Assembly: GCF_963921235.1 (NCBI RefSeq)
Contig: NC_086097.1
Location: 148,988,001-149,052,000 of the forward strand
Origin: Mobula hypostoma
Lineage: Eukaryota
Direction of reading: 5' to 3'
Length of the DNA: 64,000 nt
In this document: positions 945-63,458 of the stretch, piece by piece
Numbering within the stretch: position 1 is the stretch's first letter
Layout of the letters: every line of letters starts with the position of its first letter
The notes under the pieces: generated by a model
Databases searched by the model: none
Told to the model about the DNA's origin: nothing
What the model saw: the letters and a program-made list of their open reading frames with translations, nothing else
Position numbers and translations under genes: made by a program

Positions 945-2150
945 CTAAGACCATATGACATAAAAGCAGAATTAGGCCATTCGGCCCACCGAGTCTGCTG
1001 CTATTCCACCACGACTGATTTATTTTCCCTCTCAACCCCATTCTACTGCTTTCTCCCCATAACCTTTGACACCCTGACTAATCAATAACCAATTAGCCTT
1101 TGCTTTAAATATACTCAGTGACTTAGCCTCCGCACTCACCTGTGGCAATGAATTCCACAGATTCACCACCTTCTGTTTAAAGAAATTCCTTCTCATCTCT
1201 GTTCTAAATGGGTGTCTCTTTACTCTGAGGTTGTGCCTTCTGGTCCTAGATTCCACCACTATAGGAAACATCCGCTTCACATTGACTCTATGCCATTTGG
1301 AAAATAGTTTTACTTCTTCCACCAAAGTGTATGGTGATACACTTCCCCACACCATATTCCATCTGCCACTTCTTTGCTCATTCTCTCAATATGTCCAAGT
1401 CCTTCTACTTCCTCAACACTACCTGCCCCTCCACCTATCTTCATATCATCTTCAAACTTGTCCACAAAGCCATCAATTCTTTCATCCAAATCATTGACAT
1501 CTAATGTAAAAAAAAACACACCCCTTTTGAACAACACTAGTCACTGGCAGCAAATCCAAAAAGGATCCCTTTATTCCCACTCTTTCTCTTCTGCCAATCA
1601 GCTAATGCTCTATCCATACTAGTATCTTTCCTGTAATACCCTCGGCTCTTATCTTGTTTAGCAGTCTCACGTGTGACTCTTTATCAAAGGCCTTCTGAAA
1701 ATCCAATGATTTTCCTTTGTTTATCCTGCTTCTTGTTTCCTCAAAGAATTCCCAACAGATTGGTCAGGCAAGATTTTCCCCAAGGCTGACTTTGGCCTTT
1801 TTTTGTCAATCTTTTCAAGTAGCCCGAATCCGCTTCCTTAACAATCGACTCCAACATCTTCCCAGTCACTGAGTTTGGCTAACTGGCCTGTAATTTCCTT
1901 TCTTCTGCCTCCCTCCCTTCTTGAAGAGTGGAGTAACAATTTTTCAGCCCTCTGGAACCATGCCAGAAGCTAATGATTCTTGAAAGATTATTACTAATGC
2001 CTCCACAATTTCTTCAGCCACCTCTTTCAGAACCCTGGGGTGTACACCATCTGGTCCAAGTGACTTATCTATCTTCAGACCTTTCAGTTTCCCAAGCACC
2101 ATCTCCCTAGTAATAGCAACTGTGCTCACTTCTGTCCTCTCACTCTCTAG
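945..2150 (-). mobile_element. CR1-type LINE, fragmented 3' part of ORF2 plus 3' UTR
   Basis: Minus-strand peptides 'NFFKQKVVNLWNSLP', 'KFEDDMKIGG', 'KSLGPDGVHPRVLKEVAEEI' are CR1 ORF2 motifs; many indels; ends approximate. Confidence 0.85.
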
Positions 2151-2151
2151 A

Positions 2152-2640
2152 AGTCAAAGAAATTGATGTTCATGCCATCAGGTGGAGGCTACCCAGATGG
2201 GATATGCAGTGCTGCTATGCCAACCTGAGTTTGCTTTCATCATGGCCCTGGACAGACATGGGAAAGGGAAGTCATATTTAAATGAGTAACCACTGGGAAA
2301 TCCTTCTTTCTGGAGCAGACAGAGTGAAGCTGCTTAACAGGTGTTCTGCCAGTCCGCGTCCGGTTTCACTGATGTAATGGAGGCTGAAGTGGGAGCACTG
2401 GTACAGTTGATGACCCCAACAGACTTTCAGGTGAAGTGTTACCTCAGCTGGAAGAACTGTTTGGGGCCCTGAGTGGCAGTGAAGAAGGAGGTGGAGGGGA
2501 GAGAGTAGTATTTGTCGCTCTTTCAAGGTTAAGTGACAGGAGTGAAATCCGTGGGGAGAGGCAAGTGGTCAAGCGAGTCACATAGAGAGCATCTCTGTGG
2601 AAAGCGAGGCGTGTTGGGGGGAAGGATATGCTTGGCATGA
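2152..2640 (-). mobile_element. Degenerate Penelope-like element fragment (RT/EN linker and GIY-YIG region)
   Basis: Reverse complement resembles 9460-9985 (e.g. gatgttcatgccatcagg...ctacccaga) with frameshifts. Confidence 0.8.
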
Positions 2641-5084
2641 TCCCATTGAAGATGGTTGCAGAATCTTAAATCTGGCAGAATCACATACTTTGCATGATTC
2701 TTCAGTGTTTCCTTGTGAATTCTACTCCCATTGGTTCCTGACCATAGGTGCTTACTTTTCTTCAAATTCCTTAAAACTATCTATGGAGTTCATATCTTTA
2801 CCACTAACAACTCTTCTTCCCATATTGCCCTCCTGTTCATGTCCTCCTTCTGTTACTTCATTCAGGTTTAGATGTGCCAATCTCCAGAGTGGCCTCCCCA
2901 ACTTCAAAACACCTGTGTCCTTGACTTACCATCTTAATGTTTTCTTTAACTCATGCCAAGTAGAAGGAAATAAACTGGGATTTTAAAATCTATTAAATAG
3001 ATGCATTATAAATACAAATAGTCTTTGTTACATTTTAAATACAAAACTCTGGGAATTTATAAAATGCCTTATGACCTTGGTGACTTACTTTCAACTCAAA
3101 TAACATTGACATAATAATGTATATGACTCTTTATGCGCCTAATGTATTCCAAGATGAGGAAATATTTTGGCCTTTAGTCCAATATCAATTAAGAGCTTCG
3201 ATTTAAAACTTGTATAGTAAACTAAATTCTTATTACTGGAGGTTTTTTATGCTCCATGTATGTTAAAGATTTCTGCCAATTCTATTGCTAAAGAATAAGG
3301 ACTGTAATATTTAGTCTTACATTTGTAAAAGTAACTGATTAATGTAATTCAGAAATTACATTTGCTGACTTAAAAGTATTAGCATAAACAAAACCTTCTC
3401 ACTTTTTGTGATTAATAACTGAGCAAACAAAGATACCAACAAAACCTCAGCATCGCCATTGCATTTAGAAACTTTGGGTTTGCTTTGGAGCAAGTTTTTA
3501 AAAACTATTTATTCTGATTAGTCAAAAAATGTCTCAAACCAGACCTGAATCCACCATAATTTGCAATATCAGAAGTACTTTAACTTGGAAATAGGAGTCT
3601 ACATAAATAACAGACAATGTTCTAATCCTAGCATCAAAAATCCATTTTGCATTCTTATTTCATTCACAATAATAGTATCTCTTTTTATTATCCTCATCTT
3701 TCCTTCCCTTGTTTTTTCTTATTTCCCTATTCCATCATCCCTCTCTTCATCTCTTGTCAAGCCTCTTTTTAGGTGGTTTACTATCAAATTAGATCAACCT
3801 CAAAAATATTTGGAATTATAATCAGACAGTAACCATATTACTCTTCAATAGAGTTAAAACAACAACATAATGTTATGTTGGTCCTTTGCTTTAACAGAAT
3901 CGGAGATTTGGGTGCAGTTATATTTATTTCCAATAACGTCTTCCTTGGGCTCCTAGGTCTTTCTATAGAAACAGTACACTCAGTTTATGACAAGGGAGAA
4001 AGGTTGTGACTTAATTTTACAAGCAAAGATGCTCAAAATTCAAAAAGAAGTCTTATTTTTTAAATTAAAATCTCTATTCACAAACTACCAGCCTCGTTTC
4101 CACAAACAACTATTAGGTATTTAGACCATCTACTTAAAATAAAAATTGGCACTCCCACCTACTCTAATGAACAAGTCCCCTTCCCTGCACTCTAATTAGC
4201 AACCCACTTCACTTAGTAATCTTACATCCTCTATTTAGTAGTCTCACATACTCCAATTAGTAATCCCACTTTCGCCTTTATATCAATTATTAACACTAGT
4301 AGCAACTATTAAAAGTTGTGAACATATCACAGCTCCCCTTTACCTTAATGCATCCTCTGGAAGCTGGTGCAGCCCAAACATTGCCTGACAGCCCAGATCT
4401 TCATGCACAATTCTTTAGAATGGGACTTCAACAAGTTTCAAACTTGTAGATGAACAACCGAATTGCAGTAGCTGCTGATGATCGGTCGGTGAAGAAGCAT
4501 TTATGGCACTAACCATCATGAGATTAACAATTTGTATTTATGTAGAGTAGTTTAAGAACATTTAAGAATTTAAGAATTAAATGTTAAAGAACATCTAATG
4601 CAAAATCTCATAAGAGATGTGAAAAGATGTGCCTAGTGAAAGAAGCAGAAAGTAATGGGCATCTTAAAGGATAAGAGGCAAGAGTGAAGTGGATTTAAAA
4701 TAAAAGTAGAAATTCTGGGACCTGGGGTGTAGAAAGCTGGAGTTGCAGATTAAGTATAGTGCAGGTAGGAAAATAAAGTGCAAGGACTGTGAGAAGGCAG
4801 AATGAGAGATCGGAAGTTCAGAAGACTATTATCTGCAGGATAGAAGCTGTCCTCAAGCCTCATGCTCTCAAACTTTTGTGTCTTTTGTCCAATGGAAGAG
4901 GGGTGGGTGGGGCAGGGGAGAGAAGAGAGAATGACCAGGGTGGAAAGGGTCTTTGGTTATGTACACTGCTTTCCCAGGCAGCAGTGAAGAGCAATTCTAT
5001 GAGATCATGAGCCTTTCTACTCCTGCTTTTCTGAAGAATTTTGTGTTTCACCTTGATCTTTGATGTTAGATCTCTAACCATTTA

Positions 5085-6730: not shown

Positions 6731-6875
6731 AATGGTAGAGTAAGTAAAATCTAGATGATTTGGTGCAAGTTTGAATGAAGGAAATGAGAAAGAAAACAAC
6801 AGAGGGATTTTAAAACAGGCATGTTCAAGTATCTGAAATATAGTTTAAGCCCACAATTCTTTTATAACTTGGAAG

Positions 6876-7034
6876 CAAGTTCCACCTCAGGACCAGTTCA
6901 AGTTCCACCTCAGGACCAGTTCAAATTCCACCTCAGGACCAACTCAAGTTCAACCTCAGGACCAACTCAAGTTCCACCTCAGGACCAATTCAAGTTCCAC
7001 CTCTGAGCCAAAGCAAGTTCTACCTCTGAACCAA
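6876..7034. repeat. 23-bp tandem minisatellite, about 7 units (consensus caagttccacctcaggaccaNNN)
   Basis: Units start at 6876, 6899, 6922, 6945, 6968, 6991 and 7014 with no spacers. Confidence 0.95.
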
Positions 7035-7176
7035 TGATGATTACAGAATGCAAATACTGATCAGGTTATGTAGCCAGAATAAACCATTAAATATTGGTTG
7101 ATTTAAGCGTGTCACTTCTCAATTTAATACTTTGGATGTAATGTTATAGGAATAAATTAGCTTTGTTGATATAGGG

Positions 7177-8060
7177 TCATAGAAAAGTACAGCACAGAAA
7201 CAGACCCTTCAGCCCATCTAGTCTGTGCCAAAACTATTTAAACTGCCTACTCCCATTGACCTGCACCGGGACCATAGTGCTCAATAACCCTACCATCCAT
7301 GTACCTATCAAAACTTCCTTTAAGTGTTGAATAAAGCTCGCATGCACCACACTTTCATGACTCTCTGAGTGAAGAAGTTTCCCCTCATGTTCCCCGTAAA
7401 CTTCTCACCTTTCACCCTAACCTATGACCTTTGGTTGTAGTCCCACCTAACCTCAGTGGAAAAAGCCTGCTTGCATTTACCCTATCTATACCCCTCATAA
7501 TTTTGTATAGCTCTATCAAATCTCCTCTCAATGTTTTATGTTCTAAAGAATATAGTTCTAACCTATTCAATCTTCCCTTATAACACAGGTCCCCGAGACC
7601 CGCAACATCCTTGTAAAGTTTTTCTGTACCATTTCAACCTTGTTTACATCTTTCCTGTAGGTAGGTGACCAAAACTGCACACAGTAATCCAATCACAAAC
7701 ATGAGAAAACCTGCAGATGCTGTAAATCCAAGCAACACACACAAAATGCTGGAGGAACTCAGCAGGCCAGCCAGCATCTATGGAAAAGAGTAAATAGTCG
7801 ATGTTTCGGGCAGAGACCCTTCATCACAATGATTCAGATTAGGTTTCACCAACATCTTATAAAACTTCAACATAACATCCCATCTCCTCTACTCAATACA
7901 TTGATTTACAGATTGAAGGGCAATTTGCCTAAGCTTTCTTTACAACCCTGTCTACCTGTGATGCCACTTTCAATGAATTATGTACCTGTGTTCCCACCAC
8001 ACTCCTCAGTGCCCTACCGTTCACTATATAACACCTACCCTGGTTGGTCCCACCGTTTGT
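7177..8060 (-). mobile_element. CR1/L2-type LINE 3' fragment, interrupted by a PLE terminal module
   Basis: Typical 3' UTR 'catagaaaagtacagcacagaaacag' and 'gaccaaaactgcacacagta' (YCVQFW on minus). Confidence 0.75.
7694..7826 (-). mobile_element. Non-autonomous PLE terminal module (SINE-like) with truncated hammerhead
   Basis: Reverse complement is homologous to 10289-10383; ends inside the CUGAUGA core. Confidence 0.85.
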
Positions 8061-8488
8061 TGTTTAACTACATTTATTTATTTGTTTCATTCTTATCTTA
8101 AGTGTCAGGTTATCTAATCCTAAATTAATAAAATAAAATCAGTAACAGATTTTCTCTGAATATGATCATACAACTACTTTAAAGGCAGCAGACCTATTTT
8201 TTCTAGCTATTGTTAGTCTTTGGCTATAATATTAACATGGTGCTGAGCACATACAGGTGGGAGGGCAGTAGTTAAATTAGCAACACAGATTTAATTTGAA
8301 TAGTATTTGAAATTTGTTGAGTGTTTTTAAGGCAGCTTTAGTGCACAAGGAAAAGAGGGTGGGGGAACATGATATACTGCAAATACACTGCAGATTTTCC
8401 ATTCTGTGAATGATTGCTCCTCTGGAAACTTTCTTTTCTGTCCAGTTGCCCACCTTACTTAACAATATTTCTTAACAATATAACAATA

Positions 8489-9988
8489 GAACTCGTTTCT
8501 GCATACCTCGACACTGTTTTATCACCCCTTGTTCAATCCCTTCCGACCTATGTTCGTGACACTTCTCACGCTCTTAAACTTTTCGATGATTTTAAGTTCC
8601 CTGGCCCCCACCGCTTTATTTTCACCATGGATGTCCAGTCCTTATATACTTCCATCCCCCATCAGGAAGGTCTCAAAGCTCTACGCTTCTTTTTGGATTC
8701 CAGACCTAATCAGTTCCCCTCTACCACCACTCTGCTCCATCTAGCGGAATTAGTCCTTACTCTTAATAATTTCTCCTTTGGCTCCTCCCACTTCCTCCAA
8801 ACTAAAGGTGTAGCTATGGGCACCCGTATGGGTCCTAGCTATGCCTGCCTTTTTGTTGGGTTTGTGGAACAATCTATGTTCCGTGCCTATTCTGGTATCT
8901 GTCCCCCACTTTTCCTTCGCTACATCGAAGACTGCATTGGCGCTGCTTCCTGCACGCATGCAGAGCTCGTTGACTTTATTAACTTTGCCTCCAACTTTCA
9001 CCCTGCCCTCAAGTTTACCTGGTCCATTTCCGACACCTCCCTCCCCTTTCTAGATCGTTCTGTCTCTGTCTCTGGAGACAGCTTATCCACTGATATCTAC
9101 TATAAGCCTACTGACTCTCACAGCTATCTGGACTATTCCTCTTCTCACCCTGTCTCTTGCAAAAACGCCATCCCCTTCTCGCAATTCCTCCGTCTCCGCC
9201 GCATCTGCGCTCAGGATGAGGCTTTTCATTCTAGGATGAGGGAGATGTCTTCATTTTTTAAAGAAAGGGGCTTCCCTTCCTCCACTATCAACTCTGCTCT
9301 TAAACGCATCTCCCCCATTTCACGTACATCTGCTCTCGCTCCATCCTCCCACCACCCCACTAGGAATAGGGTTCCCCTGGTCCTCACCTACCACCCCACC
9401 AGCCTCCGGGTCCAACATATTATTCTCCGTAACTTCCACCACCTCCAACGGGATCCCACCACTAAGCACATCTTTCCCTCCCCCCCTCTCTCTGCATTCC
9501 GCAGAAATCGCTCCCTACACAACTCCCTTGTCCATTCGTCCCCCCCATCCCTCCCCACTGATCTCCCTCCTGGCACTTATCCGTGTAAGCGGAACAAGTG
9601 CTACACATGCCCTTACACTTCCTCCCTTACCACCATTCAGGGCCCCAAACAGTCCTTCCAGGTGAGGCATCACTTCACCTGTGAGTCGACTGGGGTGATA
9701 TACTGCGTCCGGTGCTCCCGATGTGGCCTTTTATATATTGGTGAGACCCGACGCAGACTGGGAGACCGCTTTGCTGAACATCTACGCTCTGTCCGCCAGA
9801 GAAAGCAGGATCTCCCAGTGGCCACACATTTTAATTCCACATCCCATTCCCATTCTGACATGTCTATCCACGGCCTCCTCTACTGTAAAGATGAAGCCAC
9901 ACTCAGGTTGGAGGAACAACACCTTATATTCCGTCTGGGTAGCCTCCAACCTGATGGCATGAACATCGACTTCTCTAACTTCCGCTAA
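8489..9988 (+). pseudogene. PLE RT/GIY-YIG reading frame: uninterrupted but N-terminally truncated, with YIED in place of YIDD
   Basis: ORF track 8414..9988; the first ~25 codons come from flanking DNA and the junction; tac atc gaa gac at 8921-8932. Confidence 0.85.
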
Positions 9989-10282
9989 GGCCCCACCTCC
10001 CCCTTGTACCCCATCTGTTACTCATTTTTATGCACACATTCTTTCTCTCACTCTCCTTTTTCTCCCTCTGTCCCTCTGAATATACCTCTTGCCCATCCTC
10101 TGGGTCACCCCCCCCCCCGTCTTTCTTCCCGGACCTCCTGTCCCATGATCCTCTCGTATCCCCTTTTGCCTATCACCTGTCCAGCTCTCGGCTCTATCCC
10201 TCCCCCTCCTGTCTTCTCCTATCATTTTGCATCTCCCCCTCCCCCTCCAGCTTTCAAATCCCTTACTCACTCTTCCTTCAGT

Positions 10283-10320
10283 TAGTCCTGACGAAGGGTC
10301 TCGGCCTGAAACGTCGACTG
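10283..10320 (+). ncRNA. Minimal type I hammerhead ribozyme
   Basis: AGUC|CUGACGA|AGGGUCUCGGCCU|GAAAC|GUC|GACU: intact core, stem I AGUC/GACU, short stem II, palindromic ACGU stem III; predicted cleavage after C10315. Confidence 0.85.
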
Positions 10321-12149
10321 CGCCTCTTCCTATAGATGCTGCCTGGCCTGCTGCGTTCACCAGCAACTTTGATGTATGTTGCTTTAACAATATTTCTCTC
10401 CTTTTCCCTACCCTCTCCCCACCCCCCTCCCTTCAATGCAATTTACCATGCTGCATTGAAGTAATTATTGGAGTAGAGTAAAAATATTTTGCACTGGCTG
10501 ATTCAATATCAACTTTCAAATGGTAATTGGAAACATGTTTAAAGAGGAATTTTCCAGCTTGGCGAAAAAGTCAGCGGAATGGTACTAATTAGAATCAGGA
10601 TAGCAACTATGGGCCAAGTGGACTCCTGTGCTAATTTTAGACTACATATCTGTAGCCACTACTATATAGCATGCTTTTAATGTTATGTAGAGAGGGTGAA
10701 TCTGTGATTTTGTTGGGTACTGATATGTGTAAGTACATCATTGAATTTTTTTCTAAAATGTATCAATGAATATAGGATTTAACTTCAGAGTTATGGCACA
10801 AAAATATTAAATCTGAGTCGAAGCTTATTCAAGTTAAAAGTATTTAAATAAAGGTATAACATAATTTAATATTAAATTTAATCAAGTTTGAAACTTTATT
10901 GCAGCCTTATTCTGGCCAAAAGAAATTTCAGTTACCAAGAAGAGTGAAAAATCATTTTTATTGGTACATATAAGGAGCCATGATGATTAAATGTTTATGT
11001 ATATTTTTTCAATATGAAATGTTTACAAACTTCAATCGGATCATAAATATTTGTAAAGGAAGTTTACTTCCTAAATGTTGACTTGGCGGTGTTTTAGGAA
11101 TTAAAGTTGGTGGAAAGGAAATGCATGCCACGAAGAAACTGTTTCATAAATATAGATAAAACAAATAAGTAATGGTTTTATGAATCAAATAGTACATAAC
11201 TCAACAAATACGAGTCAATGGTACATTTTTACTCCATGTTGACCGAGTGAGGAAAGATTATCGTTAGCTGATGATTTATTTCATCATTAATTTAAATTCA
11301 GGTAACAGTGTGATAGAATGAGAACTTGTATTTGGTTTACAAGTCTGTGGCAATCAAAACTAATTCGGTGGAGCAGTGACTACGAAACTGTTGGACTATG
11401 GTGAAGAAACAAACTAGTTCAGTAATGAAGAAAATCATCTGTCTCTACCCAGTCTGGTTTATATTGGAGGCTTCATAAACCTAATATAGATCATCGTTTT
11501 AATAAACTCTATCCCCTCCCACCTCTACCTCATTTATGTTTAGCCCCTGACATTCTGGGCAGCTTTATAGTGAGGCCACTTGAAGTAGTCTGTCAGGATG
11601 TGCACTTGATGGAAAGAATGTATTGTAAACAATAAAGGTAAAAATCTAGGCTGTTAGTACAACCACAGGAGGAAAGTAGATTATGATCTCTCACCTTGAA
11701 GGATCAATGCTATTAAATTATTTAATACTACGTATGGACTTGAGTATAAGTGACATCAATATGAGAAAATTTGGCACCATATGATAACAAAGAGCCCCAT
11801 GTTCTCAGGGTGAAGCTGAACATAAATATACAGCAGATAATATGGGATCCCTTCCCATCTATTTTTCCAAAATATTTTTCTATACTGAGCTATACAACTA
11901 ATCATCTGCCTTCAGCAATCAGACTTCATTACAGAGTACAGTTACTGATATACTTTGACATGCTATTCACGGTTTGCTGTCACGCTGTCTCTGTGTCCTC
12001 GGCCTTCGGGTTGGCTGATGCAGCCGGCTGGTGTTCATCATTTCAGTTCTCTGCAATGACGTGGTTACGGAACCTTCACATCTCCACGCATTCTTACTGA
12101 ATTGACATTTGTATTTTCTTCCTATACACTTGTAATTTCTGTTACTTCT

Positions 12150-21169: not shown

Positions 21170-22518
21170 CAGTGCCTATAAAAAGTATTCACCTCCTTGA
21201 AAGTTTTCATGTTTTATTGTTTAACAACATTGAATCACAGTGGGTTTATCTTGGCTTTTTTTGACACTGAACAACAGAAAAGACTCTTTTGTGTCAGAGT
21301 GAAAACAAATTTCTACAAATTGGTTTAAATTTATCGCAGTTTTTAAACACAAAATAATTGATTGCATAATTACTCACCCTGTTCAAGTCAGTATTTACAA
21401 GATGCACCTTTGGCAGCAATTACAGCCTTGAGTCTCTGTGGATAGGTCTCTGTCAGCTTTGCACATCTGCACACTGCAATTTTCCCCCATTCTTCTTTAC
21501 AAAACTCCTCAAGCTTTGTCAGATTGCATGGGGATCCAGAGTGAACAGCCCCCTTCAAGCCCAGCCACAACTTCTCAATTGGATTGAGGTCTGGACTCTG
21601 ACTTGGCCATTCCAGGACATTAACTTTGTTGTTTTTAAGCCATTCCTGTGTAGCTTTGGCTTTATACTTGGGGTTATTGTCCTACTGGAAAAAAAATCTT
21701 CTCCCAAGTCACAGTTCTCTTGCAGACTGCATCAGGTTTTCCTCCTGGATTTCCATGAACTTTGCTGCATTCATTTTACCCGTTACCTTCACAAGACTCT
21801 GACTAAAGCTGTGAAGGTAGCGTTAGTGAAGCACTCAGGCAGCAGTTGATGTATGCACAGCCTCCCCATCTCAGCCACTGAAACTTGTAACTCCTCCAGA
21901 GTTGTCATTGGTCTCTTGGTGGTCTCCCTCACTAGTCCCCTTCTTGCATGGTTGCTCAGTTTTTGAGGATGGCCTGCTCGAGGCAGATTGACAGCTGTGC
22001 CATATTCTCTCCATATCTTGATGGTTGACTTAACAGTATTCCAAGGGATATTCAGCGACTTGGAAATTTTCTTGTATCCATCTCCTGACTTGTGCTTTTT
22101 AATAATATTTTCGTGGAGTTGCTTGGAATGTTCTTTTGCCCTTATGGTGTTGTTTTAGGGTACTGACTCACCAACAGTTGGATCTTCCAGATACAGGTGT
22201 CTTTTTACTACAGTCAGTTGAAACACCAGGACTGCACACAGATCTCCATTTAACTAATTATGTGACTTCTAAAACCAATTGGCTGCACCAGTGATGATTT
22301 GGTGTGTCATATTAAAGGAGGTGAATACTTATGTGATCACTTATTTTATATTTTATATTTGTAATTTAGATCACTTTGTAGCAATCTGTTTTCACATTGA
22401 CATGAAAGAGTCTTTTTCTGCTGATCAGTGTCAGAAAAAGCCAAATTATATCCATTGTAATTCAATGTTGTAAAATACGAAAACTTCCAAGAGGGGTGAA
22501 TACTTCTTATAGGTACTG
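21170..22518 (-). mobile_element. Tc1-like transposon (IR/DR type), internally deleted
   Basis: TIRs cagtgcctataaaaagtattcacc / ggtgaatacttcttataggtactg; TA on both sides; 'LEEFCKEEWGKIAVCRCAKL...VIAAKGA'. Confidence 0.95.
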
Positions 22519-24480: not shown

Positions 24481-25733
24481 CATAGAAACATAGAAACATA
24501 GAAAATAGGTGCAGGAGTAGGCCATTCGGCCCTTCGAGCCTGCACCGCCATTTATTATGATCATGGCTGATCATCCAACTCAGAACCCCACCCCAGCCTT
24601 CCCTCCATATCCCCTGACCCCTGTAGCCACAAGGGCCATATCTAACTCCCTCTTAAACATAGCCAATGAACTGGCCTCAACAGTTTGCTGTGGCAGAGAA
24701 TTCCACAGATTCACCACTCTCTGTGTGAAGAAGTTTTTCCTAATCTCGGTCCTAAAAGGCTTCCCCTCTATCCTCAAACTGTGACCCCTCGTTCTGGACC
24801 TCCCCAACATCGGGAACAATCTTCCCGCATCTAGCCTGTCCAATCCCTCTAGGATCTTATACGTTTCAATCAGATCCCCCCTCAATCTTCTAAATTCCAA
24901 CGAGTACAAGCCCAGTTCATCCAGTCTTTCTTCATATGAAAGACCTGCCATCCCAGGAATCAATCTGGTGAACCTTCCTTGTACTCCCTCTATGGCAAAG
25001 ATGTCTTTCCTCAGATTAGGGGACCAAAACTGCACACAATACTCCAGGTGTGGTCTCACCAAGGCCTTGTACAACTGCAGTAGTACCTCCCTGCTCCTGT
25101 ACTCGAATCCTCTCGCTATAAATGCCAGCATACCGTTCGCCTTTTTCACCGCCTGCTGTACCTGCATGCCCACTTTCAATGACTGGTGTATAATGACACC
25201 CAGGTCTCGTTGCACCTCCCCTTTTCCTAATCGGCCACCATTCAGATAATAATCTGTTTTTCCTATTTTTGCCACCAAAGTGGATAACTTCACATTTATC
25301 CATATTAAATTGCATCTGCCATGAGTTTGCCCACTCACCCAACCTATCCAAGTCACCCCGCATCCTCTTAGCATCCCCCTCACTGCTAACACTGCCACCC
25401 AGCTTCGTGTCATCCGCTAACTTGGAGATGCTGCATTTAATTCCCTCATCCAAGTCATTAATATATATTGTAAACAACTGGGGTCCCAGCACTGAGCTTT
25501 GCGGTACCCCACTAGTTACCGCCTGCCATTCTGAAAAAGTCCCGTTTATTCCCACTCTTTGCTTCCTGTCTGCTAACCAATTCTCCACCCACACCAATAC
25601 CTTACCCCCAATACCGTGTGCTTTAAGTTTGCACACTAATCTCCTGTGTGGGACCTTGTCAAAAGCCTTTTGAAAATCCAAATATACCACATCCACTGGT
25701 TCTCCCCTATCCACTCTACTAGTTACATCCTCA
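24481..25733 (-). mobile_element. Young 5'-truncated CR1 LINE
   Basis: 'YLDFQKAFDKVPHRRL', 'GVPQSSVLGPQLF', 'SKLADDTKLGG', 'RPHLEYCVQFW'; one frameshift near 25260; (CATAGAAA)n tail. Confidence 0.95.
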
Positions 25734-26027
25734 GGTACCTTCAGGTACCTTCAGGTCCTTCTGCATATTGACACTAAGGGGCTGGTATGGTAGCCCCTCA
25801 AACACTTGAAATTTTGTTTCATCCCAGAGGGCCAGATGAGTGGCAGTGGTACAATGTACAGAAAATGTGCAAAACACTACCAATGTATAGAACTAGTAGC
25901 ACTGAATGTATTGACTGAGCAATGCCACAGATGTAAAAAGGGTCATGGAATGCTTTTTGTAATTCTATACAACCGATTTCAGTTCATAGGTCCAGTGATT
26001 AATCGGGGCAGGAGACTGTTGTCGAAT

Positions 26028-34994: not shown

Positions 34995-35140
34995 AACACA
35001 CACAAAATGCTGGTGGAACTCAGCAGGCCAGGCAGCATTTATGGAAAAGAGTAAACAGTTGATGTTTTGGGCTGGAACCCTTCATCAGGACTGGAAAAAA
35101 AGATGAGTCAAAGTAGAAAGTTGGGGGAGGGGAGGAAGAG
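34995..35140 (-). mobile_element. PLE terminal module with mutated hammerhead (GAAA to AAAA)
   Basis: Minus strand cagtc-ctgatga-agggttccagccc-aaaac-atc-aactg. Confidence 0.85.
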
Positions 35141-38567: not shown

Positions 38568-39260
38568 CAACCCACACAAAATGCTGGAGGAACTCAGCAG
38601 GTCAAGCAGTATCAATAGAAAAGGGTAAATGGTCAATGTTTCAGGCTGAGACCTTCCTTCAGTACTGAGAAGGTAGGGGGAAGATGCCTGAATTAAAAGG
38701 TGGGGAGGGGAAAGAGGCTATCTGGAAGGTGATGAGTGAAGCCTGGTGGGTGGGAAAGGTCAAGGGCAGGAGAAGAAAGAATCTGATAGGGGAGGAGAGT
38801 GGATAGTAGTAGAAAGGGAAGGAGTAGGGGACCCAGAGGGAAATGCTAGATGAGAAGAAGTGAAAGGTCTGAGTGGGGAAAATTTGTTCACCGGAAGGAG
38901 AAATCGATATTCATACCCAGATGGAGAATAAGGTGTTGCTCCTCCACCCTGAGCATGGCCCTGTCTTGGCTCAAGAGGAGGCCATGGACTGACATGCCAG
39001 AATGGGAATTAAATGTTTGACCAACGGGAAGTGCTGCTTGTGGTGGATGGTACAGCAGTACTTGACAAAGCCTTCCCCCAGTTCCCAGTTTCCGACGGGT
39101 CTCAGCAACAAAGAGTAGGCCGCATCGGGAGCACCGGACACAATAGACGACCGGAGCAGATTCACAGGTGAAGTGTTGCTTCACTTGGAAGGACTGTTTG
39201 AGGCCCTGAACTGAGGTGAGGGAGGAGGTTTATGGGCAGGTGTAGCACTTAACCTGCCTC
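38568..39260 (-). mobile_element. PLE 3' fragment (GIY-YIG + terminal module)
   Basis: 'HFTCESAPVVYCVRCSRCGLLFVAET', 'RVEEQHLI', 'MNIDFS'. Confidence 0.9.
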
Positions 39261-42939: not shown

Positions 42940-44327
42940 CAGTGCCCCCAACTGTTGTTCACATAAATCAGTATTACATCTCGGGATTTTGATCAATTTA
43001 ACTGAGAACTCTTTATTTGTGAAACACAAGCTCCTTTTTCACAATAGACCCCATAAACAGGGAAAATTGTAAAGCATAAAAAACTAAAAATTCAAAAACT
43101 GAAATGTTAGCACTTCAAAAGTATTCACCCCCCCCCCACCCCTTACTCAGTTCTTAGTTGAACCACCTCTGGCAACCATTACATCCAGCAAACACGAAGA
43201 AATCTGCAGATACTGCGTTCCACCGGCATTTTGTGTGAGTTGATTACATCCAGTAGTCCTAAGTCTCTACTAGTTTTGCACAATGTGATGGAGCAAGATT
43301 TGCCCATTCCTCCTTGCAACATTGCTCTAGCGGTGCCAGGTTACTTGGGGAGTGGCAGTGGACAGGAATCTTGAAGACTTGCCAGAGATGTTCGATAGGG
43401 GTAAGGTCAGGACTCTGACTGGGCCACTCAATGACATCAATTTTCTTCATCTGAAGCCACTCCATGGTTGCTCTGGCAGTGTTCCACTTTAATTTCATTT
43501 GATCACGCCACCACCTTCTTCATCTTAACAGCATCTTTGAAGAGTCATTTTGCAAAGTCCTTATTGACAAGGATATGTTTTTTGTTTTAGCTCTTCCTTG
43601 CCACTCTTTCATAAATACCCTTTTTGTTCATGGCCTTAGAGATTGTGGAGCCATGAACTTCATCTACAATTGCAGCCACTGACTTCAGCAGCTCACTTAG
43701 AGTGACTTTTGGCATCACAGTAGCCTCTCTTACACGTGCTATTCTTTTCTGATGACTAAGTTGAGAGGGGCAGCCTGACCTAGGCAGTATGGCTGTGGTT
43801 TCATATTATTTCCACTTTTTCACAATGAGCTGCACTGAGCTCCAAGGTATGTTCAAATAGTTTTGTACCCTTCCTGAAATTTGTGCTTCTCTATTATCAT
43901 TTCCTTGACTTGTCTTGAATGCTCTTTTGTCTTAATTTTGGTTTGGTCTGTTGAACATCTGCCATACTGTTGTACCTTACAGAGGGGGGGTACATTTATT
44001 CTTATGAATTTGTTGAAAAAAAGTGATCCTTCAATTTTATGTATCAACTAATTGAGTGAGTTAGTAAGGTAATACTGTATGTTACACATGAGGAAAGTTA
44101 GCGTCGTAATTACAAAGGGGGTGAATACTTTTTCATCTTCGCAATTTTGGTTTAAATTTTAGTAAATTGTTGACAGGTTTTGGAAGTTTTCTTTTGATTT
44201 GACATGATGCGCAATGTTTTGTAGATTAACTTGAAATATCCTACTTCAATATATTTAAAATTTAGAAAATGAAACAGTAAAGTATGAAAATAGTTGTGGG
44301 GTTTGAATGCTATTTCACGGAATTGTA
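42940..44327 (-). mobile_element. Older Tc1-like transposon, internally deleted
   Basis: 'WPSQSPDLTPIEHLW', 'KTKEHSRQVKEMIIEKHK'; inner repeats aaaagtattcaccc / ggggtgaatacttttt. Confidence 0.85.
43189..43242. mobile_element. 54-bp PLE-derived micro-insertion (two terminal pieces in opposite orientation)
   Basis: Perfect 11-bp TSD attacatccag at 43178-43188 and 43243-43253. Confidence 0.85.
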
Positions 44328-48400: not shown

Positions 48401-48482
48401 AAGAAGTACACAGTTCACCATCTCTGCCTAAACTTCAAGTGTGATATTAGATCTCATCTTCCAAGTCTCAATGTTGTATAAC

Positions 48483-48860
48483 ATAAACATGACAAAGTCT
48501 GCAGATGCTGGAAATCCAGAGCAACACACACACAATGCTGGAGGAACTCAGCAGGTCAGGCTGTATCTATGGAAAAGAGTAAACGGTTGACGTTTCGGGC
48601 CGAGACTCTTCATTAGGACAGAGAAGGAAGGGGGGGAGATGTCAGAATAAAAAGGTGGGTGAGGGATGGGGAAGAAGGCTAGCTAGAAGGTGATGGGTGA
48701 ATTCAAGGGCTGGAGATGAAGGAATCTGATAGGAGAGGAGAGTGGACCATAGGAGGAAGGGAAGAATGAGGGGAATGATAGGCAGGTGTGAAGAGGTAAA
48801 AGGCCGGAGTGGAGAACAGAAGAGGAGGGGAGGGAGAGGAAAATATTTTACTGGAAGGAG
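48483..48860 (-). mobile_element. PLE 3' UTR and terminal module, hammerhead with CUAAUGA core mutation
   Basis: Minus strand tgtc-ctaatga-agagtctcggccc-gaaac-gtc-aacc. Confidence 0.85.
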
Positions 48861-53259: not shown

Positions 53260-54010
53260 AACAGCCCCAAACAGTCCTTCCGGGTGAGGCAATATTTTAC
53301 CAAGTTGCTCAGCATCATCCACTGTATGTAGTGTTTCCAGTACAGTCTCCTGTATATCAAAGAGACCTAAAATAGATTGGCAGACGGCTTTGCCAAGCTC
53401 CTTCATTGGGTCTGCCACAACATGGATTTGGTGGTGGGCACCTACTTTAATCCTTCTTCCGATTCGCATATGTCAGTCCATGGTACCTCTACTGCCACAA
53501 TGAGACCAGTCTCAGGTTAAAGGAGTGACAACTCGTATTCCTTCTGGGTAGCCTCCAAACTGACATCATGAACATTGATTTCTTTGTCTTCCAGTAATTT
53601 CTATCCCCTCCCTTCTCTCTTTTTCTGTTCCCACTCTGACTCCCCTCTTACATCTTCTCTTCTCACCTGGCTACCATCGCTTTGTAGTGCACCTCCTCCT
53701 TCCCTTTTCCCCATGATTCACTCTCCTCTCCAATCAGATTCCTCCATCATCCACCTTTTGCCTTTTCCACTTATCACCTCCAGCTTCTCACTTCATCCTC
53801 CCCTCCACCACCTACCTACCCACTTCCCCCTCACCTGGCTTCAGCTATCACCCGTTGGCATGCTCTCCTTCCCCTTGCCCTACTTTCTTATTCTGGCTTT
53901 TTTTCCCCTTCCTTTTAAATCCTGGTGAAGTTTCGTGGCCCAAAACATTGACTGTGTATTGCTTTACATAGAAGCTAAACAGCTGAGTTCCTCCATAATT
54001 TTCTGGGTTT
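53260..54010 (+). mobile_element. Decayed PLE 3' fragment
   Basis: 'ccccaaacagtccttccgggtgaggc', 'ctgggtagcctccaa...atgaacattgatttc' match 9643-9975. Confidence 0.85.
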
Positions 54011-54485: not shown

Positions 54486-54712
54486 TTCTGCAGATGCTGG
54501 AAATTTTGAGCAGCACACGCAAAATGCTGGAAGAACTCAGCAGGTCGGCCAGTATCCACAAAGAGAAATAAAAAGTCAGCATTTTGGGATGAGACCCTTC
54601 ATGAGGCCAGGTTCTGATGTAGTGTCTTGGTGTGAAATGCCAACTGTTTATTTCCCTCCATGGATGCTGTCTGATTTGCTGAGCTCCTCCAGCATTTTGT
54701 TTGTGTTGCTCC
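54486..54712. mobile_element. Old fold-back PLE mini-element
   Basis: Minus-orientation terminal module followed by a plus-orientation module. Confidence 0.8.
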
Positions 54713-56653
54713 ATTGATGCTGTCTCCTGTGCAATGTTCAACAATGTTTTCAGGCCACCAACTTCATGTTTTGTATTACTCCCCCTCCCCACTGGTTTGA
54801 TCAGCACTCCAGGACAAAGGCAAACTGGCATTGGCCAACAAGTGTTGCATTGTCACATAGTCCTGATTGCATTTGACTTTCTGCAACCTCTATCTCTTCA
54901 TTAACTGTTGTGTTTGCAGACACCAGTCACTGCTCTGTTCTGCAACCCAGTGTGTGACTGTGGATGTTGTCCTTGTGGGTGAACTCTTGCTGGGAAATTC
55001 AGTGGTAAGCTCCATGCTGCTGATCGCCAGAAACACTATTGCTCTGCTTGGATGATGAAACACCTGAAAACTAAGGTTTGATTTGCCCCCTCTTGTAATC
55101 AGAACATTTAGAGCCTAACTCGCACCCTCAGCCAAGTTCCCTGCACTCGGGCCATCCATAACAATCAAGAATACCCCAGTACGTTACCCAGCAATCCAAG
55201 CACCCTACCCTGTACACTCTCACATTCTGTTTCCCCAATCCTTCTAAACAGGCTGCCTGTTGCTGGACCCCATTCAAAGGCCAACAGAATTTACTTTTGG
55301 TAGGACATTTGGGAACCTAATTGTCCAGAATTTTCAATATCACAACATCCTTCCCATGAGGCTATTGCTTCCAGACAGAAATTTATGAAACAGCTCTGGA
55401 ACATACTTGCCATTGGCTGATGGTTCTGTTTTTTTAAAAAACAACAACTGCCCGCTGTCCTCGTTCTGCGTTCCGCTCGTCTGTACATGGGCATTGAAAT
55501 GCACAAGTCTGAGACAAGCTACTGTACTGTGTGTGTGTTGCCACCAGCCTTGCCAAAAAGTCTAGCAGCAGGGCGCAAATGAATTGAAGAGAATGTCCAA
55601 ATCGACTTCACATCCTGTCCCTCAGCTTTATAGGAAAGTGACTGTGTAACTAGAAACCCCATTATTTGTGTGGGTTTGCTGGTCCTGAATAAAGCGGGAA
55701 GTTCAGACAAATTATTTATTGTACTGACTGTGTTTAACTTAGTTCCATTGCCTTATGTGGTTTTATTAAACTTCTTATTTTTTAAATATATTGCTGTATT
55801 ATATATTTATTTTTGAGCAGATTTTGAATGTCTGATTTAAATGTCTGATGGAAATGTTAAAAAAAAATTCAAAAACTTTAACCACCTGTCAGTGTACAGC
55901 AGGAGAGTTGTTACAGGATCTGAGACCTCATACCTCTTTGCTGCTTACAGTGACTCGGCTTTGTTCAACATCAAGTTCAAAGCAAATTTATTATCCAAAT
56001 TTATTATACACCCCTGGGATTTGTTTTCATGCAGGCATACACAGTAAACAATTTTGCAGATTAACTCTTGAGCAGGGAGAGTCTTTGGGGCTGGGTTTTT
56101 GCAGCTGGACAGGTTTCTTGCAGATAGGCATCATATGTGGTGAGTACAAGCTGCAGGTAGAACTCGGAGTGTTTGGCCCATTGCCTCTGCATTTGAATTA
56201 AGCCCTCATTAAGTGCAGGTCTTGCTCTCTCGTTTATTTGTACTTTACAAGATGATTTACCTTGAAATGGTCTCTGCTTGTCTATATATATTTTTACTGA
56301 ACGTGAAAATAAGCTGGAAAATGCATTTCTATATACATATTGAGCCAAATCACAAAACTTTTAAGTCCAGTTACTGCTATTGGACAGAGAAGGAGTGTGT
56401 GTCAGTGTACTAGTAGCTGAATTCAATTGGGCTTTCCCCCTTTTAGTTATAATTGTATGGCCCAGCTAAAGCCAATCTGGTTATGACTGAGGTGGTGTCA
56501 GTGCCCTTATTTTTCATTAGTGGATAGCAAAGTCATAAAATGTTTTAGTGTGGAAGAAGTCCATTCAGCCCATTTAGTCTTTACTGGGTCTCTGTAATGA
56601 CTAATCTGGCTTTTCCCACTCACCATGGCCCTGTAAGTTGGCTTTGAATTACC

Positions 56654-56833
56654 CACAAGAGAAAATCTGCAGATGCTGGAAATCCAAGCAACACAAAATG
56701 CTGGAGGAACTCAGCAGGCCAGGCAGCATCTATGGGGGGAAAAAAAGTAAAGTTGACGTTTCGGGCTGAGGTGTCAACTGTACTTTTTTCCATAGATGCT
56801 GCCTGGTCTGCTGAATTCCTCCAGTATTTTTTG
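56654..56833. mobile_element. Fold-back PLE mini-element
   Basis: Inverted arms; perfect 11-bp TSD tttgaattacc at 56643-56653 and 56834-56844. Confidence 0.9.
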
Positions 56834-57879
56834 TTTGAATTACCTATTCCTTTTGAGTGGCATAAATGAATCTGCATGATGTTGCAAATGTCTCAGACTC
56901 TAACCCAGAAGGTGGCAAATACCTAAAAGTTGAGTTTCTTGGTCATCTTAACAGGTCAGGGATTTGTTAACGGTATTCTTCTTTGAACATTGGTTAACAT
57001 AGCGAGTTGAAATAATTGAAACTTTTTCAGGTTTGAAGGATAGATCTAGTGGAGTAGCTCAGGTCAGCTCTTGGCCCTCAGTTATTTACTATTTATTCAA
57101 AATGTAATGTCTTCAGGTTTGCTAAAGGCACACAAGTAGGTGGAAGCGAAAGTTTTGTTGAAGATACTGTGCGTCTGCAACAGGAGATTTATTGAGTGAG
57201 TGGCAAATGGATTTTAATGTGAGGAAGGGTAAGGTCATTCATTTTACTGAGAAGAATCTAAAGGCAGATAGTCACTTAAATGGAAAGGGAATGCAAATAA
57301 GTGAAGAATAGAGGATCCAGATGTCATACCCAAGCATCTTCAGGAGACTATATCATTAGAAGTATTTAAAATGAATGGTAGATGTTTTTGAATGATGGAA
57401 GGCAAATGATTAGGCAAACAGGACCTGAGGATTTATCTAATAGATGGTGCCCCCAAAACTGCTGTGCACCTCTGCTGAAATAACAGATGTAATTGTCTGT
57501 GAGCATTATGCAGTGGGGCTTTAAACCCTTCATCTTCTGACTCTAGGGTTGCAGGTCAATCGGCTGAGCCAAACTGACACGCTGCTTAGAGTGCCTGCAA
57601 TCTTCTGCATAGTTTGAGGCAAAGGGATCAGACGTTCATGGCTGGCATCACATCCACTTAAAATTGAAGCTGTTTTGAAAATACCTTGAGCAAGATTAGA
57701 CTATTATCCCATTAAATAAAGCGATCAATAACGTTCATACAGATACTCTGATATGTCTAGAAGGCACAAGATTAGATCTGAATAAGGTATATGAACACTA
57801 CAGTTAATCTTGATTATAGTCCTCCAGTGATACATGCAAAACGGCAGTTAATTCCTTTCAATTGACAGATTAAAACAGA

Positions 57880-58016
57880 CCAGTCCTGATAAGGAGACTT
57901 GGCCCAAAATGTCGGCAGTTCATTTTCCTCCGTAGATGCTGCCTGACATGCTGAGTTCCTCTAGCGTTTTGTGTGTGTTTATCCAGATTTCCAGCATCTG
58001 CAGTCTCTCTTGTGTT
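57880..58016 (+). mobile_element. PLE terminal module with degenerate hammerhead
   Basis: cagtcctgataaggagacttggcccaaaatgtc...ccagcatctgcag. Confidence 0.8.
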
Positions 58017-58889
58017 GCGAGTAAAATCTGCTTGGAAGGTCAGTACTGACAGCTATTGAAATATTACTGGAATTAAGTTAGTTCATAAATCTGCTGATCC
58101 CTTTCTCCTAAAGGGGAAAAGGACTGAGATGGGGCGGGGGGAGGGGAGTGATTATTAAGACCACTTTAGGGTGGATATTGATACATACACTATTTCGGAC
58201 GCCCCCGCCCCCCCTTCAAGAGTTGTAAAGGATCTATGCCTAGAAACTCGATTGGTTAGCTTTTAATGCACATATCACCCCAGAATAAGATTTCTCCAGT
58301 TTCTTTTAACCTGTTGAAAGAAACACTCTTCAGAAAAGGAAAGGGGGGCCCTTCCTTGCTCTGTTCATGTTGGGATACCTGATGTTTTCTCTAGTGTCAA
58401 GTAACTGTAGCAGAAAGCCCATTTTCACTTTTACTAGAACAAATTGGAGCTTCTGGAAGCAAGCGGACCTCCACAGAGCAATGAGGGCACATTGTACAAC
58501 TTTTTCTTTTCAGTTATGTGGAGGATCTTCTGTTGACAACTCAAAGCAGGCTGCTCAGATACTTTCCAAAGTCCACAGCATGTGCTATAACTAACAGTGA
58601 ATGCTTTCTTGCACTCATTTCCTGATGTGCTCATTCAATGGAGCCTGTGTTGTAATACTGCTGACTGCAATCTATTAGTGGAGCTGCCGTTATGGAAGTG
58701 AATGGCCAGGAAGGATGGGTCGAGCACCTGCCCATACTCATGTGGAACTTTTTGTGATACCATGTCCTTTCTGGACCTCTGAACAGTATATTTTCAGGTT
58801 AAGGCTTTCTAAGGCTGTAATCAACTAAGTTGTACCACAGTCGTACGAGATATAGGGGAGACTGCATTTGTAATACACTTAATTCCTGT

Positions 58890-59475
58890 GTATCAGTGGA
58901 ACCTGATGTAGATTGGGAGAGTGCTTCGCTGAGCACCTACGTTCTGTCCGCCAGAAAGAAGTGGGATCTCCCGGTGGCCACCCATTTCAATTCTTTTTCC
59001 TGTTCCCATTCCAACTTGTCAGCCCATGGCCTCCTCTACTGCAACAACGTGGCCACACTCAGGTTGGAATTAGTGGGTAGCCTCCAACCTGATGGCATGA
59101 ACATCGATTTCTTGAACTTCCAGTAATTCTAACTCCTCTCCCCCCCCCCAATTCCTCATTTCTATTTCTCTCTCTCACCGTATCTTCTTACCTGCCCATT
59201 ACTTCCCTCTGGTGCTCTTCTCCCTTCCCTTTCTTCCATGGCCTTCTGTCCTCTCTTAACAGATTCCTCCTTCTCCTGCCCTGTGTTTCTTTTACCAATT
59301 GACTTCTGAGCTTCCCCTCTCCTGGTTTCACCTACCACCTTCTTCTCCCCAATCTCTACCCTCTTACTCTGACTTCTCATTTGTTTCTCCAGTCCTGAGG
59401 AAGGGTCTCTGCCTAAAACATGGACTGTTTACTCTTTTCCATAGGTGTTGCCTGTTCTGCTGAGTTCCTCCAGCG

Positions 59476-59518
<43 letters not shown>

Positions 59519-59555
59519 GCTTGGATTTCAGCATCTGCAGACTTTCTCTTGTTTG
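58890..59555 (+). mobile_element. PLE 3' fragment (GIY-YIG end, 3' UTR, terminal module)
   Basis: 'DLPVATHFNS', 'GSLQPDGMNIDF'; hammerhead remnant at 59390-59427. Confidence 0.9.
59479..59517. repeat. (TG)n microsatellite expanded from the PLE terminal module
   Basis: About 19 TG units where other copies have about 3-4. Confidence 0.95.
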
Positions 59556-59589
59556 TAATATTACGATCAGTTATGGTCATCTTGCTCAT

Positions 59590-62350: not shown

Positions 62351-63238
62351 CTGAATTCTACTTTATGTTCGTAAATGAAGAGGGCACAGTTTCCATAAGC
62401 GAAAGCTTAGGTAAATCTGTATTTTTGTGTTTCAATTCTATGAAGGAGAAGAGAAAAGGAAGCCGAAGAGTTGTTAAAATTGGATTAGTTTTAAGTGTGA
62501 GATCTATAGTCATTCGTAGCATCATTTCACTCAGTGTGCCTGAGACATTGCACTAATTCTCACACCAATAGCAGCAGATAAAGATTGCAAGCTGCATCTG
62601 TCATTGCTTCTGCATGCAGTCAAGCTGTGCTGGTATAGTCACTCCTTCCTTCCATTCTCTTTCTTACTTATCCTTATTTTATCATTGTTATTTCCTTCTC
62701 CTTCCCTGCGGAGTAGGGGTTAGTGTATTGCTATGTAGAAAGATTACCTATTCTTTTGATAGATGAAGTGTGATTTTGGCCACAATCTGGGCAAGCAGAT
62801 ATTTAATATGAACTCCCATTTTGTCGAATGAAGCATTGCATCAAAAGTATTCATCTTATTACATTATTCATTTGCTGTGTTTGAATGGTGGCCCAACATC
62901 AGTATAAATCTTTGAATTATCTCATCTATATAATATTTTCATGCTTTCCCACACAACCTAGGCAAAATGAGAACCGTGACATGATTGACTGCAACAGAGG
63001 ATGCACATGGGCTTGCATTCTTGAGGATTTTTGTAAGATTTGTGTACTTGCCCTGTTCCTTCTCTTATTTAAACACACTGTGCTTCTGCACACTCACAAA
63101 AACATGTACTCTTTCAGTCATAATTACACTCCTCATACTGCTGTCCCCATGATAAAGATGAATTGTTGAGCCTTTACATCAACAATACAACTAAAGTACC
63201 CAACTACACTCTGCCTAACTGAGTATAGCTACAACTAA

Positions 63239-63458
63239 TCACAAACTAGAGAAAATCTGCAGATGCTCGAAATCCATGCAACTCACACAAAATGCTGGAG
63301 GAACTCAGCAGGCCAGGCAGCATCTATGGAAAAGAGTAAACAGGATCCCTTACTTCTCATCTTTTTTCTCCAGTCCTGGTGAAGACTGAAATAGTGACTC
63401 TCTTCCATAGATGTTGCCTGGCCTGCTGAGTTCCTCCAGCATTTTGTGTGAGTTGCAT
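63239..63458. mobile_element. Fold-back PLE mini-element with 62-bp arms
   Basis: 63276-63337 and 63397-63458 are reverse complements (2 mismatches); probable TSD atagctacaactaa / atagctatacctaa. Confidence 0.9.

Follow-up and report, generated by a model that had tools for sequence, protein, structure and literature searches.

Minimal, dimer-type type I hammerhead ribozymes (min-HHR) in the pseudo-LTRs of Penelope-like elements (PLEs) are a known class (PMC4209133), as a first-pass annotation of the DNA analysed here had noted. The described traits of the class include a bulged base between positions 9 and 10.1 and a G10.1-C11.1 pair that is highly conserved but not absolute: by our own count from the text of Fig. 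S3, this closing pair is G-C in 43 of 56 published motifs, G·U in 8 and A-U or U-A in 5, with G·U also found in the row for Schistosoma family 1, a family whose dimers cleaved weakly (PMC4209133). In the published tests a single minimal motif was inactive and dimers were weakly active (PMC4209133), and for the Poseidon element PAc of Anolis carolinensis no cleavage was reported without the element's own protein, no RNA-seq ends lay at the site and uncut RNA was the main template (PMC11167929). Among the PLE clades, a Cys-x2-5-Cys-xx-Cys linker marks Neptune, although Nematis has it too (PMC8557442), and retrozymes have been reported in one chondrichthyan genome (bioRxiv 10.64898/2026.07.22.740005). 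Our literature search, with subscription papers and preprint supplements outside its scope, found no paper on hammerheads in shark or ray PLEs and no measured effect of a G·U pair at 10.1-11.1.

The window analysed here (the whole 64,000-nt stretch of Mobula hypostoma DNA) carries on its + strand the letters AGTC (10284-10287), CTGACGA (10288-10294), AGGGTCTCGGCCT (10295-10307), GAAAC (10308-10312), GTC (10313-10315) and GACT (10316-10319), found at the positions where they had first been annotated. These supply the min-HHR core, with the boxes CUGANGA and GAAA and an NUH triplet, and a stem I of four Watson-Crick pairs plus U10283·G10320. In the hammerhead numbering, which we take to place G12-A13-A14-A15.1 at 10308-10311, C15.2 and G16.2 at 10312 and 10313, U16.1 at 10314 and C17 at 10315, the predicted cut after C10315 and the ACGU palindrome at 10311-10314 are correct, so both the cleavage position and the palindromic stem III proposed at the outset agree with it (Table 1).

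Table 1. Features of the flagged element and of related 3' ends in the window (positions are those of the window)
Feature	Position	Strand	Evidence
5' copy of 14-bp target-site duplication	8459..8472	+	exact 14-mer found only here and at 10384-10397
16 extra nt at 5' junction, partial repeats of target sequence	8473..8488	+	element-like protein sequence begins at 8489
5'-truncated PLE ORF, 499 codons without stop: RT, linker, C-terminal GIY-YIG endonuclease	8489..9988	+	domain and protein searches
C/T-rich 3' untranslated part of element	9989..10268	+	sequence; family depth from 10200 on
Segment predicted to pair with core 10288-10299 (11-bp competing hairpin)	10269..10281	+	folding prediction
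Stem I, 5' strand	10283..10287	+	alignment, folding
Core box C3-A9 and bulged A between A9 and G10.1	10288..10295	+	alignment
Stem II (G·U, G-C, G-C, U·G) with CUCG loop	10296..10307	+	alignment, contig depth, folding
Core box G12-A15.1, palindromic minimal helix III (ACGU), GUC triplet; predicted cut after 10315	10308..10315	+	sequence, alignment
Stem I, 3' strand	10316..10320	+	alignment, folding
Rest of pseudo-LTR, without optional tail of ~35-40 nt	10321..10383	+	3' end point common to other copies
3' copy of 14-bp target-site duplication	10384..10397	+	exact 14-mer
Older-subfamily decayed 3' end	7690-7826	-	
Older-subfamily decayed 3' end	34995-35094	-	
Older-subfamily decayed 3' end	38568-38676	-	
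Older-subfamily decayed 3' end	43213-43245	+	
Older-subfamily decayed 3' end	48482-48630	-	
Older-subfamily decayed 3' end	53916-54008	+	
Older-subfamily decayed 3' end	57880-58013	+	
Older-subfamily decayed 3' end	59389-59559	+	

The bare core pattern alone is not significant in the window (2 matches against 1.87 expected, with at least 2 matches in 52 of 100 shuffles). With the stems added to the core, the flagged site is the sole match in the window, and only 2-5 of 150 shuffled windows give any match, depending on the stem thresholds. In a search with a covariance model trained on 29 motifs from distant relatives and on no window sequence, the flagged site ranked first of 9 window matches (32.4 bits, E ~1e-6, a rough value given the short calibration); the other window matches are decayed. 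An Rfam scan, which the first-pass annotation had named as a check, matched no hammerhead family, either at the gathering score across the whole window or at E values up to 10 in 10200-10400. On sequence grounds, a minimal type I hammerhead motif of the dimer type is genuinely present in these 38 bases, beyond chance.

The motif lies on the sense strand within the 3' pseudo-LTR of a PLE, 300 nt past the stop codon, and the insertion that holds the element (8489-10383) is bounded by a perfect 14-bp duplication. A single ORF with RT and C-terminal GIY-YIG endonuclease identifies an EN+ PLE; in Pfam searches of this ORF both domains were detected slightly under their curated cut-offs (GIY-YIG, E 4e-4; RVT_1, E 9e-4), and a protein search returned 1010 homologues. 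The closest proteins come under the labels Mobula hypostoma (93%) and, at 77-87%, Hypanus sabinus; next are those of sharks and then invertebrate-type proteins at about 50%. The linker between RT and endonuclease contains Cys-x4-Cys-x2-Cys (CKRNKCYTC), its cysteines being invariant or nearly so in 27 proteins, and on this linker (common to Nematis) and on relatives bearing the Acropora Neptune motif, the sequence points to a Neptune-type EN+ PLE. The RT catalytic motif of the flagged copy reads YIED, where DD is present in 167 of 174 pattern-matching proteins (234 proteins examined), and full-length relatives measure 800-1100 aa, about twice the length of the flagged copy's protein; because of the half-length protein and the damaged RT motif, the copy counts as truncated and dead. 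The copy, being 5'-truncated, has no tandem or partial-tandem structure with a 5' pseudo-LTR. Two protein records, P0002 and P0005 (host gene models, kinase-domain and chitinase-domain isoforms), are made largely of the element's ORF, which probably reflects annotation read-through, and no host exon was found among the 26 ORFs scanned of about 50 in the window.

The match of a 2320-nt contig of organism B (left part not shown) begins at 10384, the pattern expected of an empty site; a contig of organism A extends from the element interior into the flank. The clean duplication, the open frame and the empty-site-like contig support the youth of the element, and the original placement of the motif in the 3' terminal repeat of a young PLE is supported. 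Loose contig ends at 10383 and 10384 mark a 3' end point that the element has in common with other copies, and an optional tail follows at 5 places in the window, compared with 15 matches to the preceding 61-nt segment. This shared end at 10383, together with the optional tail of 35-40 nt, agrees with the anole element, for which two internal start sites have been described (PMC11167929). Family depth is about a million times single-copy depth, which is not a copy number.

Several further observations concern the region on either side of the motif. In 10324-10383 a pyrimidine run, AG and an ATG at 10336 follow the motif, resembling a splice acceptor before a start codon, and between the old and the young subfamily one nucleotide is lost and one gained over some 20 nt of this segment, so that length and frame are preserved; in tandem copies the ORF may have its 5' end in the region of ATG 10336. 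Long AT-rich loose ends immediately before the motif (10284-10286) are seen in many contigs, and short insertions may often begin near its 5' edge, a reading confounded by the older subfamily diverging at the same positions.

The older-subfamily 3' ends (Table 1) are short and about 73-82% like the flagged copy, with the 15 matches to the one 61-nt segment falling within 64 kb. No second same-strand hammerhead lies near the flagged site, the next + strand model matches being decayed and occurring from 53916 on, and the window holds no tandem repeats with at least two consecutive hammerheads of the kind that define a non-LTR retrozyme. The inverted fragment at 7690-7826 was rejected as the element's inverted 5' repeat, given its 79% identity and its position outside the duplication. 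Head-to-head inverted pairs of pseudo-LTR ends occur at 54488-54710, 56647-56837 and 63237-63456, with junctions in or beside the hammerhead region, and older endonuclease-end relics of the same family (35-67% protein identity) at 2150-2669 (-), 38897-39259 (-), 53266-53594 (+) and 58886-59123 (+). The window also contains a tandem array of about 7-9 units of 23 nt (6853-7059) and, by Pfam, a Sleeping Beauty-type transposase HTH remnant at 21792-22154 (-) and a LINE-type RT fragment at 25019-25750 (-).

Relatives were sought in a metagenome scan, from which the best 80 of 538 confirmed loci were taken, 53 of these having sequence past the stop codon. The core-only pattern was present within 550 nt past the stop at 18 of the 53 loci, in 15 cases 83-148 nt past it; the remaining 35 had no match to the core pattern, and damaged remnants were seen in 5 of the 14 loci listed. 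One type of relative motif is identical to the Acropora Neptune motif of Fig. S3 (PMC4209133). DNA pattern scans of viral contigs and prokaryote genomes, and protein scans of viral contigs, gave no match. In five relatives (L014, L020, L021, L029 and L030) the motif also occurs upstream of the ORF or overlaps its start, as would suit a role at the 5' end of the following unit. In L014:10, L020:338 and L021:323 the upstream hammerhead lies inside the open frame, as reported for the anole element, while in L029 and L030 the frame begins about 140-190 nt after the hammerhead. Inverted hammerhead-bearing repeats lie upstream of the ORF at L002:1054-1093, L011:2256-2295, L028:3309-3349, L030:2083-2121 and L056:631-670 (all -), and such inverted upstream repeats, frequent in distant relatives, are the head-to-head arrangement described for these elements.

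An alignment of 33 motifs (29 of 48 locus matches and 3 of 9 window matches of a pattern search, and 1 further window copy) was picked by eye for clean core and position. Covariation of stems I and II, whose absence the first-pass annotation had named among its refuting conditions, is present across these motifs: with the bulged register described below, 82% of cells are paired compared with 57% in shuffles (none of 500 reaching the observed value) and 22-42% in slid controls, and both sides change in 8 of 9 pairs, the inner three pairs of stem I being well kept and the outer two not. These figures lean high because the 33 motifs were hand-picked and many are related. Positions 15.2-16.2 (C10312/G10313) are palindromic, without a real helix III, and are complementary in 29 of the 33; covariation at this pair is not significant (55 of 500 shuffles). 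Relatives sharing about 50% protein identity show hardly any change in the catalytic-core letters, which is in part a consequence of how the search pattern was built.

The family register of stem II leaves A10295 bulged and pairs G10296·U10307, G10297-C10306, G10298-C10305 and U10299·G10304 around the CUCG loop, with 96% of cells paired in the 33 aligned motifs and a probability of 0.87-0.97 in isolated-motif folding. The register implied by the initial annotation (A10295-U10307) fares poorly, since it pairs in only 2 of the 33 motifs and reaches a probability of 0.02 in the isolated motif. The bulged A10295 column is invariant in all 33 motifs under a search pattern that allowed one change. 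The 10.1-11.1 closing pair is G-C in 31 aligned motifs and G·U in 2, the flagged copy being one of the 2, and all 29 non-window motifs have C in the 11.1 column. The description of the motif as intact holds for the core, with G·U in place of the usual G-C at this pair.

Such a U at 11.1 could mark a decayed relic in which CpG deamination had turned C11.1 to U and crippled stem II, as the C in 31 of 33 aligned motifs and the CpG type of the change would allow. Contigs of three sequencing runs (X1, X5 and X9) mapped onto 10200-10480 show, in contrast, that C makes up only 20% (X1), 31% (X5) and 20% (X9) of contig depth at 10307, a share that reference bias will lower; ordinary CpG changes, the level to be expected of private decay, amount to 7-11% per site in run X1, and the mirror change G10308>A to 2-6%. 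Reference bias alone is no explanation for the low C share, because positions at which the window has the minority letter (e.g. 10230) still show the other letter at 68-97% in the same depth table. U10307 is clearly common and inherited in the young subfamily rather than a product of private decay, which the depth letters at 10307 in all three runs speak against. As G·U moreover closes helix II in 8 of the 56 published representatives (PMC4209133, Fig. S3), we give the relic reading almost no credence.

Folding predictions, which ignore tertiary core contacts, Mg2+ and proteins in the nearest-neighbour model used, separate the isolated motif from the motif in its context. In the isolated 38-mer, stems I and II form at probabilities of 0.87-0.98, whereas the predicted probability of the hammerhead fold is at most 0.02 once the RNA begins at 10268 or earlier. 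The fold is predicted to be lost in context owing to pairing of 10269-10281 with 10288-10299 (at probabilities of 0.78-0.94 for contexts 100-394 nt long), the competing hairpin having a predicted energy of -10.5 kcal/mol compared with -7.7 kcal/mol for the hammerhead fold. Two 38-mers co-folded are predicted to form a non-hammerhead duplex (-30.3 kcal/mol) rather than a double-hammerhead-like pairing (-11.8 kcal/mol, scored without helix III), and within a long transcript 10289-10319 could also find a partner in the antisense older copy at 7796-7826.

This upstream segment might be a built-in off-switch of a regulated ribozyme, such that a read-through 3' repeat would stay uncut as template while an RNA starting at about 10280 would free the hammerhead. 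The 11-bp hairpin is predicted to form while the 3' half of the motif is still untranscribed and to persist at 0.87-0.96, stems I and II are predicted to return to 0.43-0.73 when the RNA begins at 10280-10283, and shuffling the upstream 30 nt gives an equally good result in only 2 of 1000 cases. The common variants fall at unpaired or terminal positions (10268, 10276, and 10269 A>G, which keeps a wobble), and no variant of 4% or more lies on the 10 inner paired positions. Against this, the hairpin was noticed after the fact, another stretch of this C/U-rich UTR, 1 of 76 examined, scores 0.875 compared with the observed 0.878, the change 10269 A>T (5-7%) breaks a pair, and no compensatory double change was seen. 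Only 10 of 32 motifs lie above their own shuffled mean (0.175 overall against 0.207), which rules out the competing hairpin as a general trait of Neptune hammerheads and weighs against a switch in the present family as well. We regard such a switch as distinctly unlikely. If it were true, it would explain for this family why PLEs keep a ribozyme yet copy uncut RNA, and how a vertebrate tolerates intact motifs in huge numbers while its transcripts stay whole; if the hairpin is real, whether the ribozyme is on would follow a simple rule.

The inserted copy continues 68 nt beyond the cut site, so the template must have been uncut or religated there. Among the 18 rows of loose contig ends listed (643 further rows lying outside the listing), none falls at 10315/10316. 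In run X1, CpG transitions at the cleavage dinucleotide (6.9% and 8.2%) resemble those in the stem II loop (9.1% and 11.1%), as expected for passenger copies. As a separate observation, run X9 (RNA only by guess) shows fewer CpG changes at 10292-10316 (2-4% at six sites), compared with 7-11% in the DNA runs, as though its sequences derived from younger copies.

The initial proposal that any transcript crossing the site could self-cleave is not supported, given the lack of a tandem partner, the predicted fold of at most 0.02 in context, the uncut or religated template, and the inactivity of published single motifs (PMC4209133) and the protein dependence of the anole motif (PMC11167929). A stronger version of this proposal holds that the flagged copy is an active ribozyme that cuts after C10315 in every + strand transcript, either in cis or with helix III contributed by a second transcript of the family. 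All core positions are intact, the isolated 38-mer is predicted to fold well, trans partners may exist in a family this abundant (on depth, which does not count copies), and the same G·U pair occurs in the weakly dimer-cleaving Schistosoma family 1 (PMC4209133), but the predicted loss of the fold in context, the missing tandem partner, the non-hammerhead duplex favoured by two 38-mers and the possible pairing with the antisense older copy make this very improbable. A different possibility is that the motif is kept as a structural or protein-binding part of the pseudo-LTR, with cleavage incidental even in master elements. This would accord with the catalytic mutants of the anole element, which had no effect on insertion in vitro (PMC11167929), with Naiad elements, which proliferate without canonical hammerheads (PMC8557442), and with the spread of the young subfamily with G·U at 10.1-11.1; it fits less well with the near invariance of the core letters, and not of the stems alone, in relatives at about 50% identity (in part a product of the search pattern) and with the anole motif, which cleaves with protein and is rescued by the C3G/G8C double change (PMC11167929). 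It appears unlikely.

The reading we prefer, and consider probable, is that of a genuine PLE hammerhead kept in master elements, with the flagged copy a mostly non-cutting passenger. The motif belongs to the pseudo-LTR of a Neptune-type PLE amplified to very high copy number in a ray lineage and, by analogy with papers on other elements, would be maintained in transposing master elements, in which tandem copies may complete helix III for each other by pairing their ACGU palindromes, a step in which the element's protein probably assists, and so cut a long precursor RNA; the dependence on dimers and on protein, like the role of master elements, is carried over from those other elements. For the flagged copy, reverse transcription would have begun 68 nt downstream of the site on an uncut template and stopped after about 1.9 kb, and the product would then have inserted at an AT-rich target. 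Standing alone downstream of a C/U-rich stretch with predicted pairing to its core, the motif would most likely leave host read-through transcripts essentially uncut.

The class, the clade and the pattern of a lone 3' motif are already published, the class in 2014 (PMC4209133), and a single further motif matters little, hammerheads in PLE repeats, Neptune included, having been described there. The family is nevertheless a convenient test case for the in vivo role of minimal hammerheads, being young, very abundant and present in two stem II versions. Compared with the min-HHR of metazoan PLEs as described in PMC4209133, the flagged motif is alike in being of type I, in both core boxes, in the bulge between 9 and 10.1, in the short helix I, in the absence of a helix III beyond the palindrome and in its location in a pseudo-LTR, with Neptune elements included in that class; a lone 3' motif is also the usual case there in 5'-truncated copies. 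It differs in its short helix II (4 bp), closed by a G·U pair that is present in 8 of the 56 motifs of Fig. S3, a set without cartilaginous fish, and its 3' UTR before the motif (300 nt) is longer than in most of the relatives found here (83-148 nt).

The Poseidon element PAc of Anolis carolinensis resembles the present element in its AT-rich target, in a start of reverse transcription downstream of the hammerhead on uncut RNA and in an optional tail of 30-40 bp (PMC11167929), but the flagged element has the Cys linker, which Poseidon, a different clade, is without (PMC8557442). Protein-assisted cleavage and internal initiation were demonstrated for PAc (PMC11167929) and would apply to the flagged element by analogy. 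With the animal non-LTR retrozymes the locus has in common type I hammerheads linked to Penelope-like repeats (PMC7229834; bioRxiv 10.64898/2026.07.22.740005); unlike these tandem non-coding repeats with at least two motifs, it carries a single motif at the end of a coding element.
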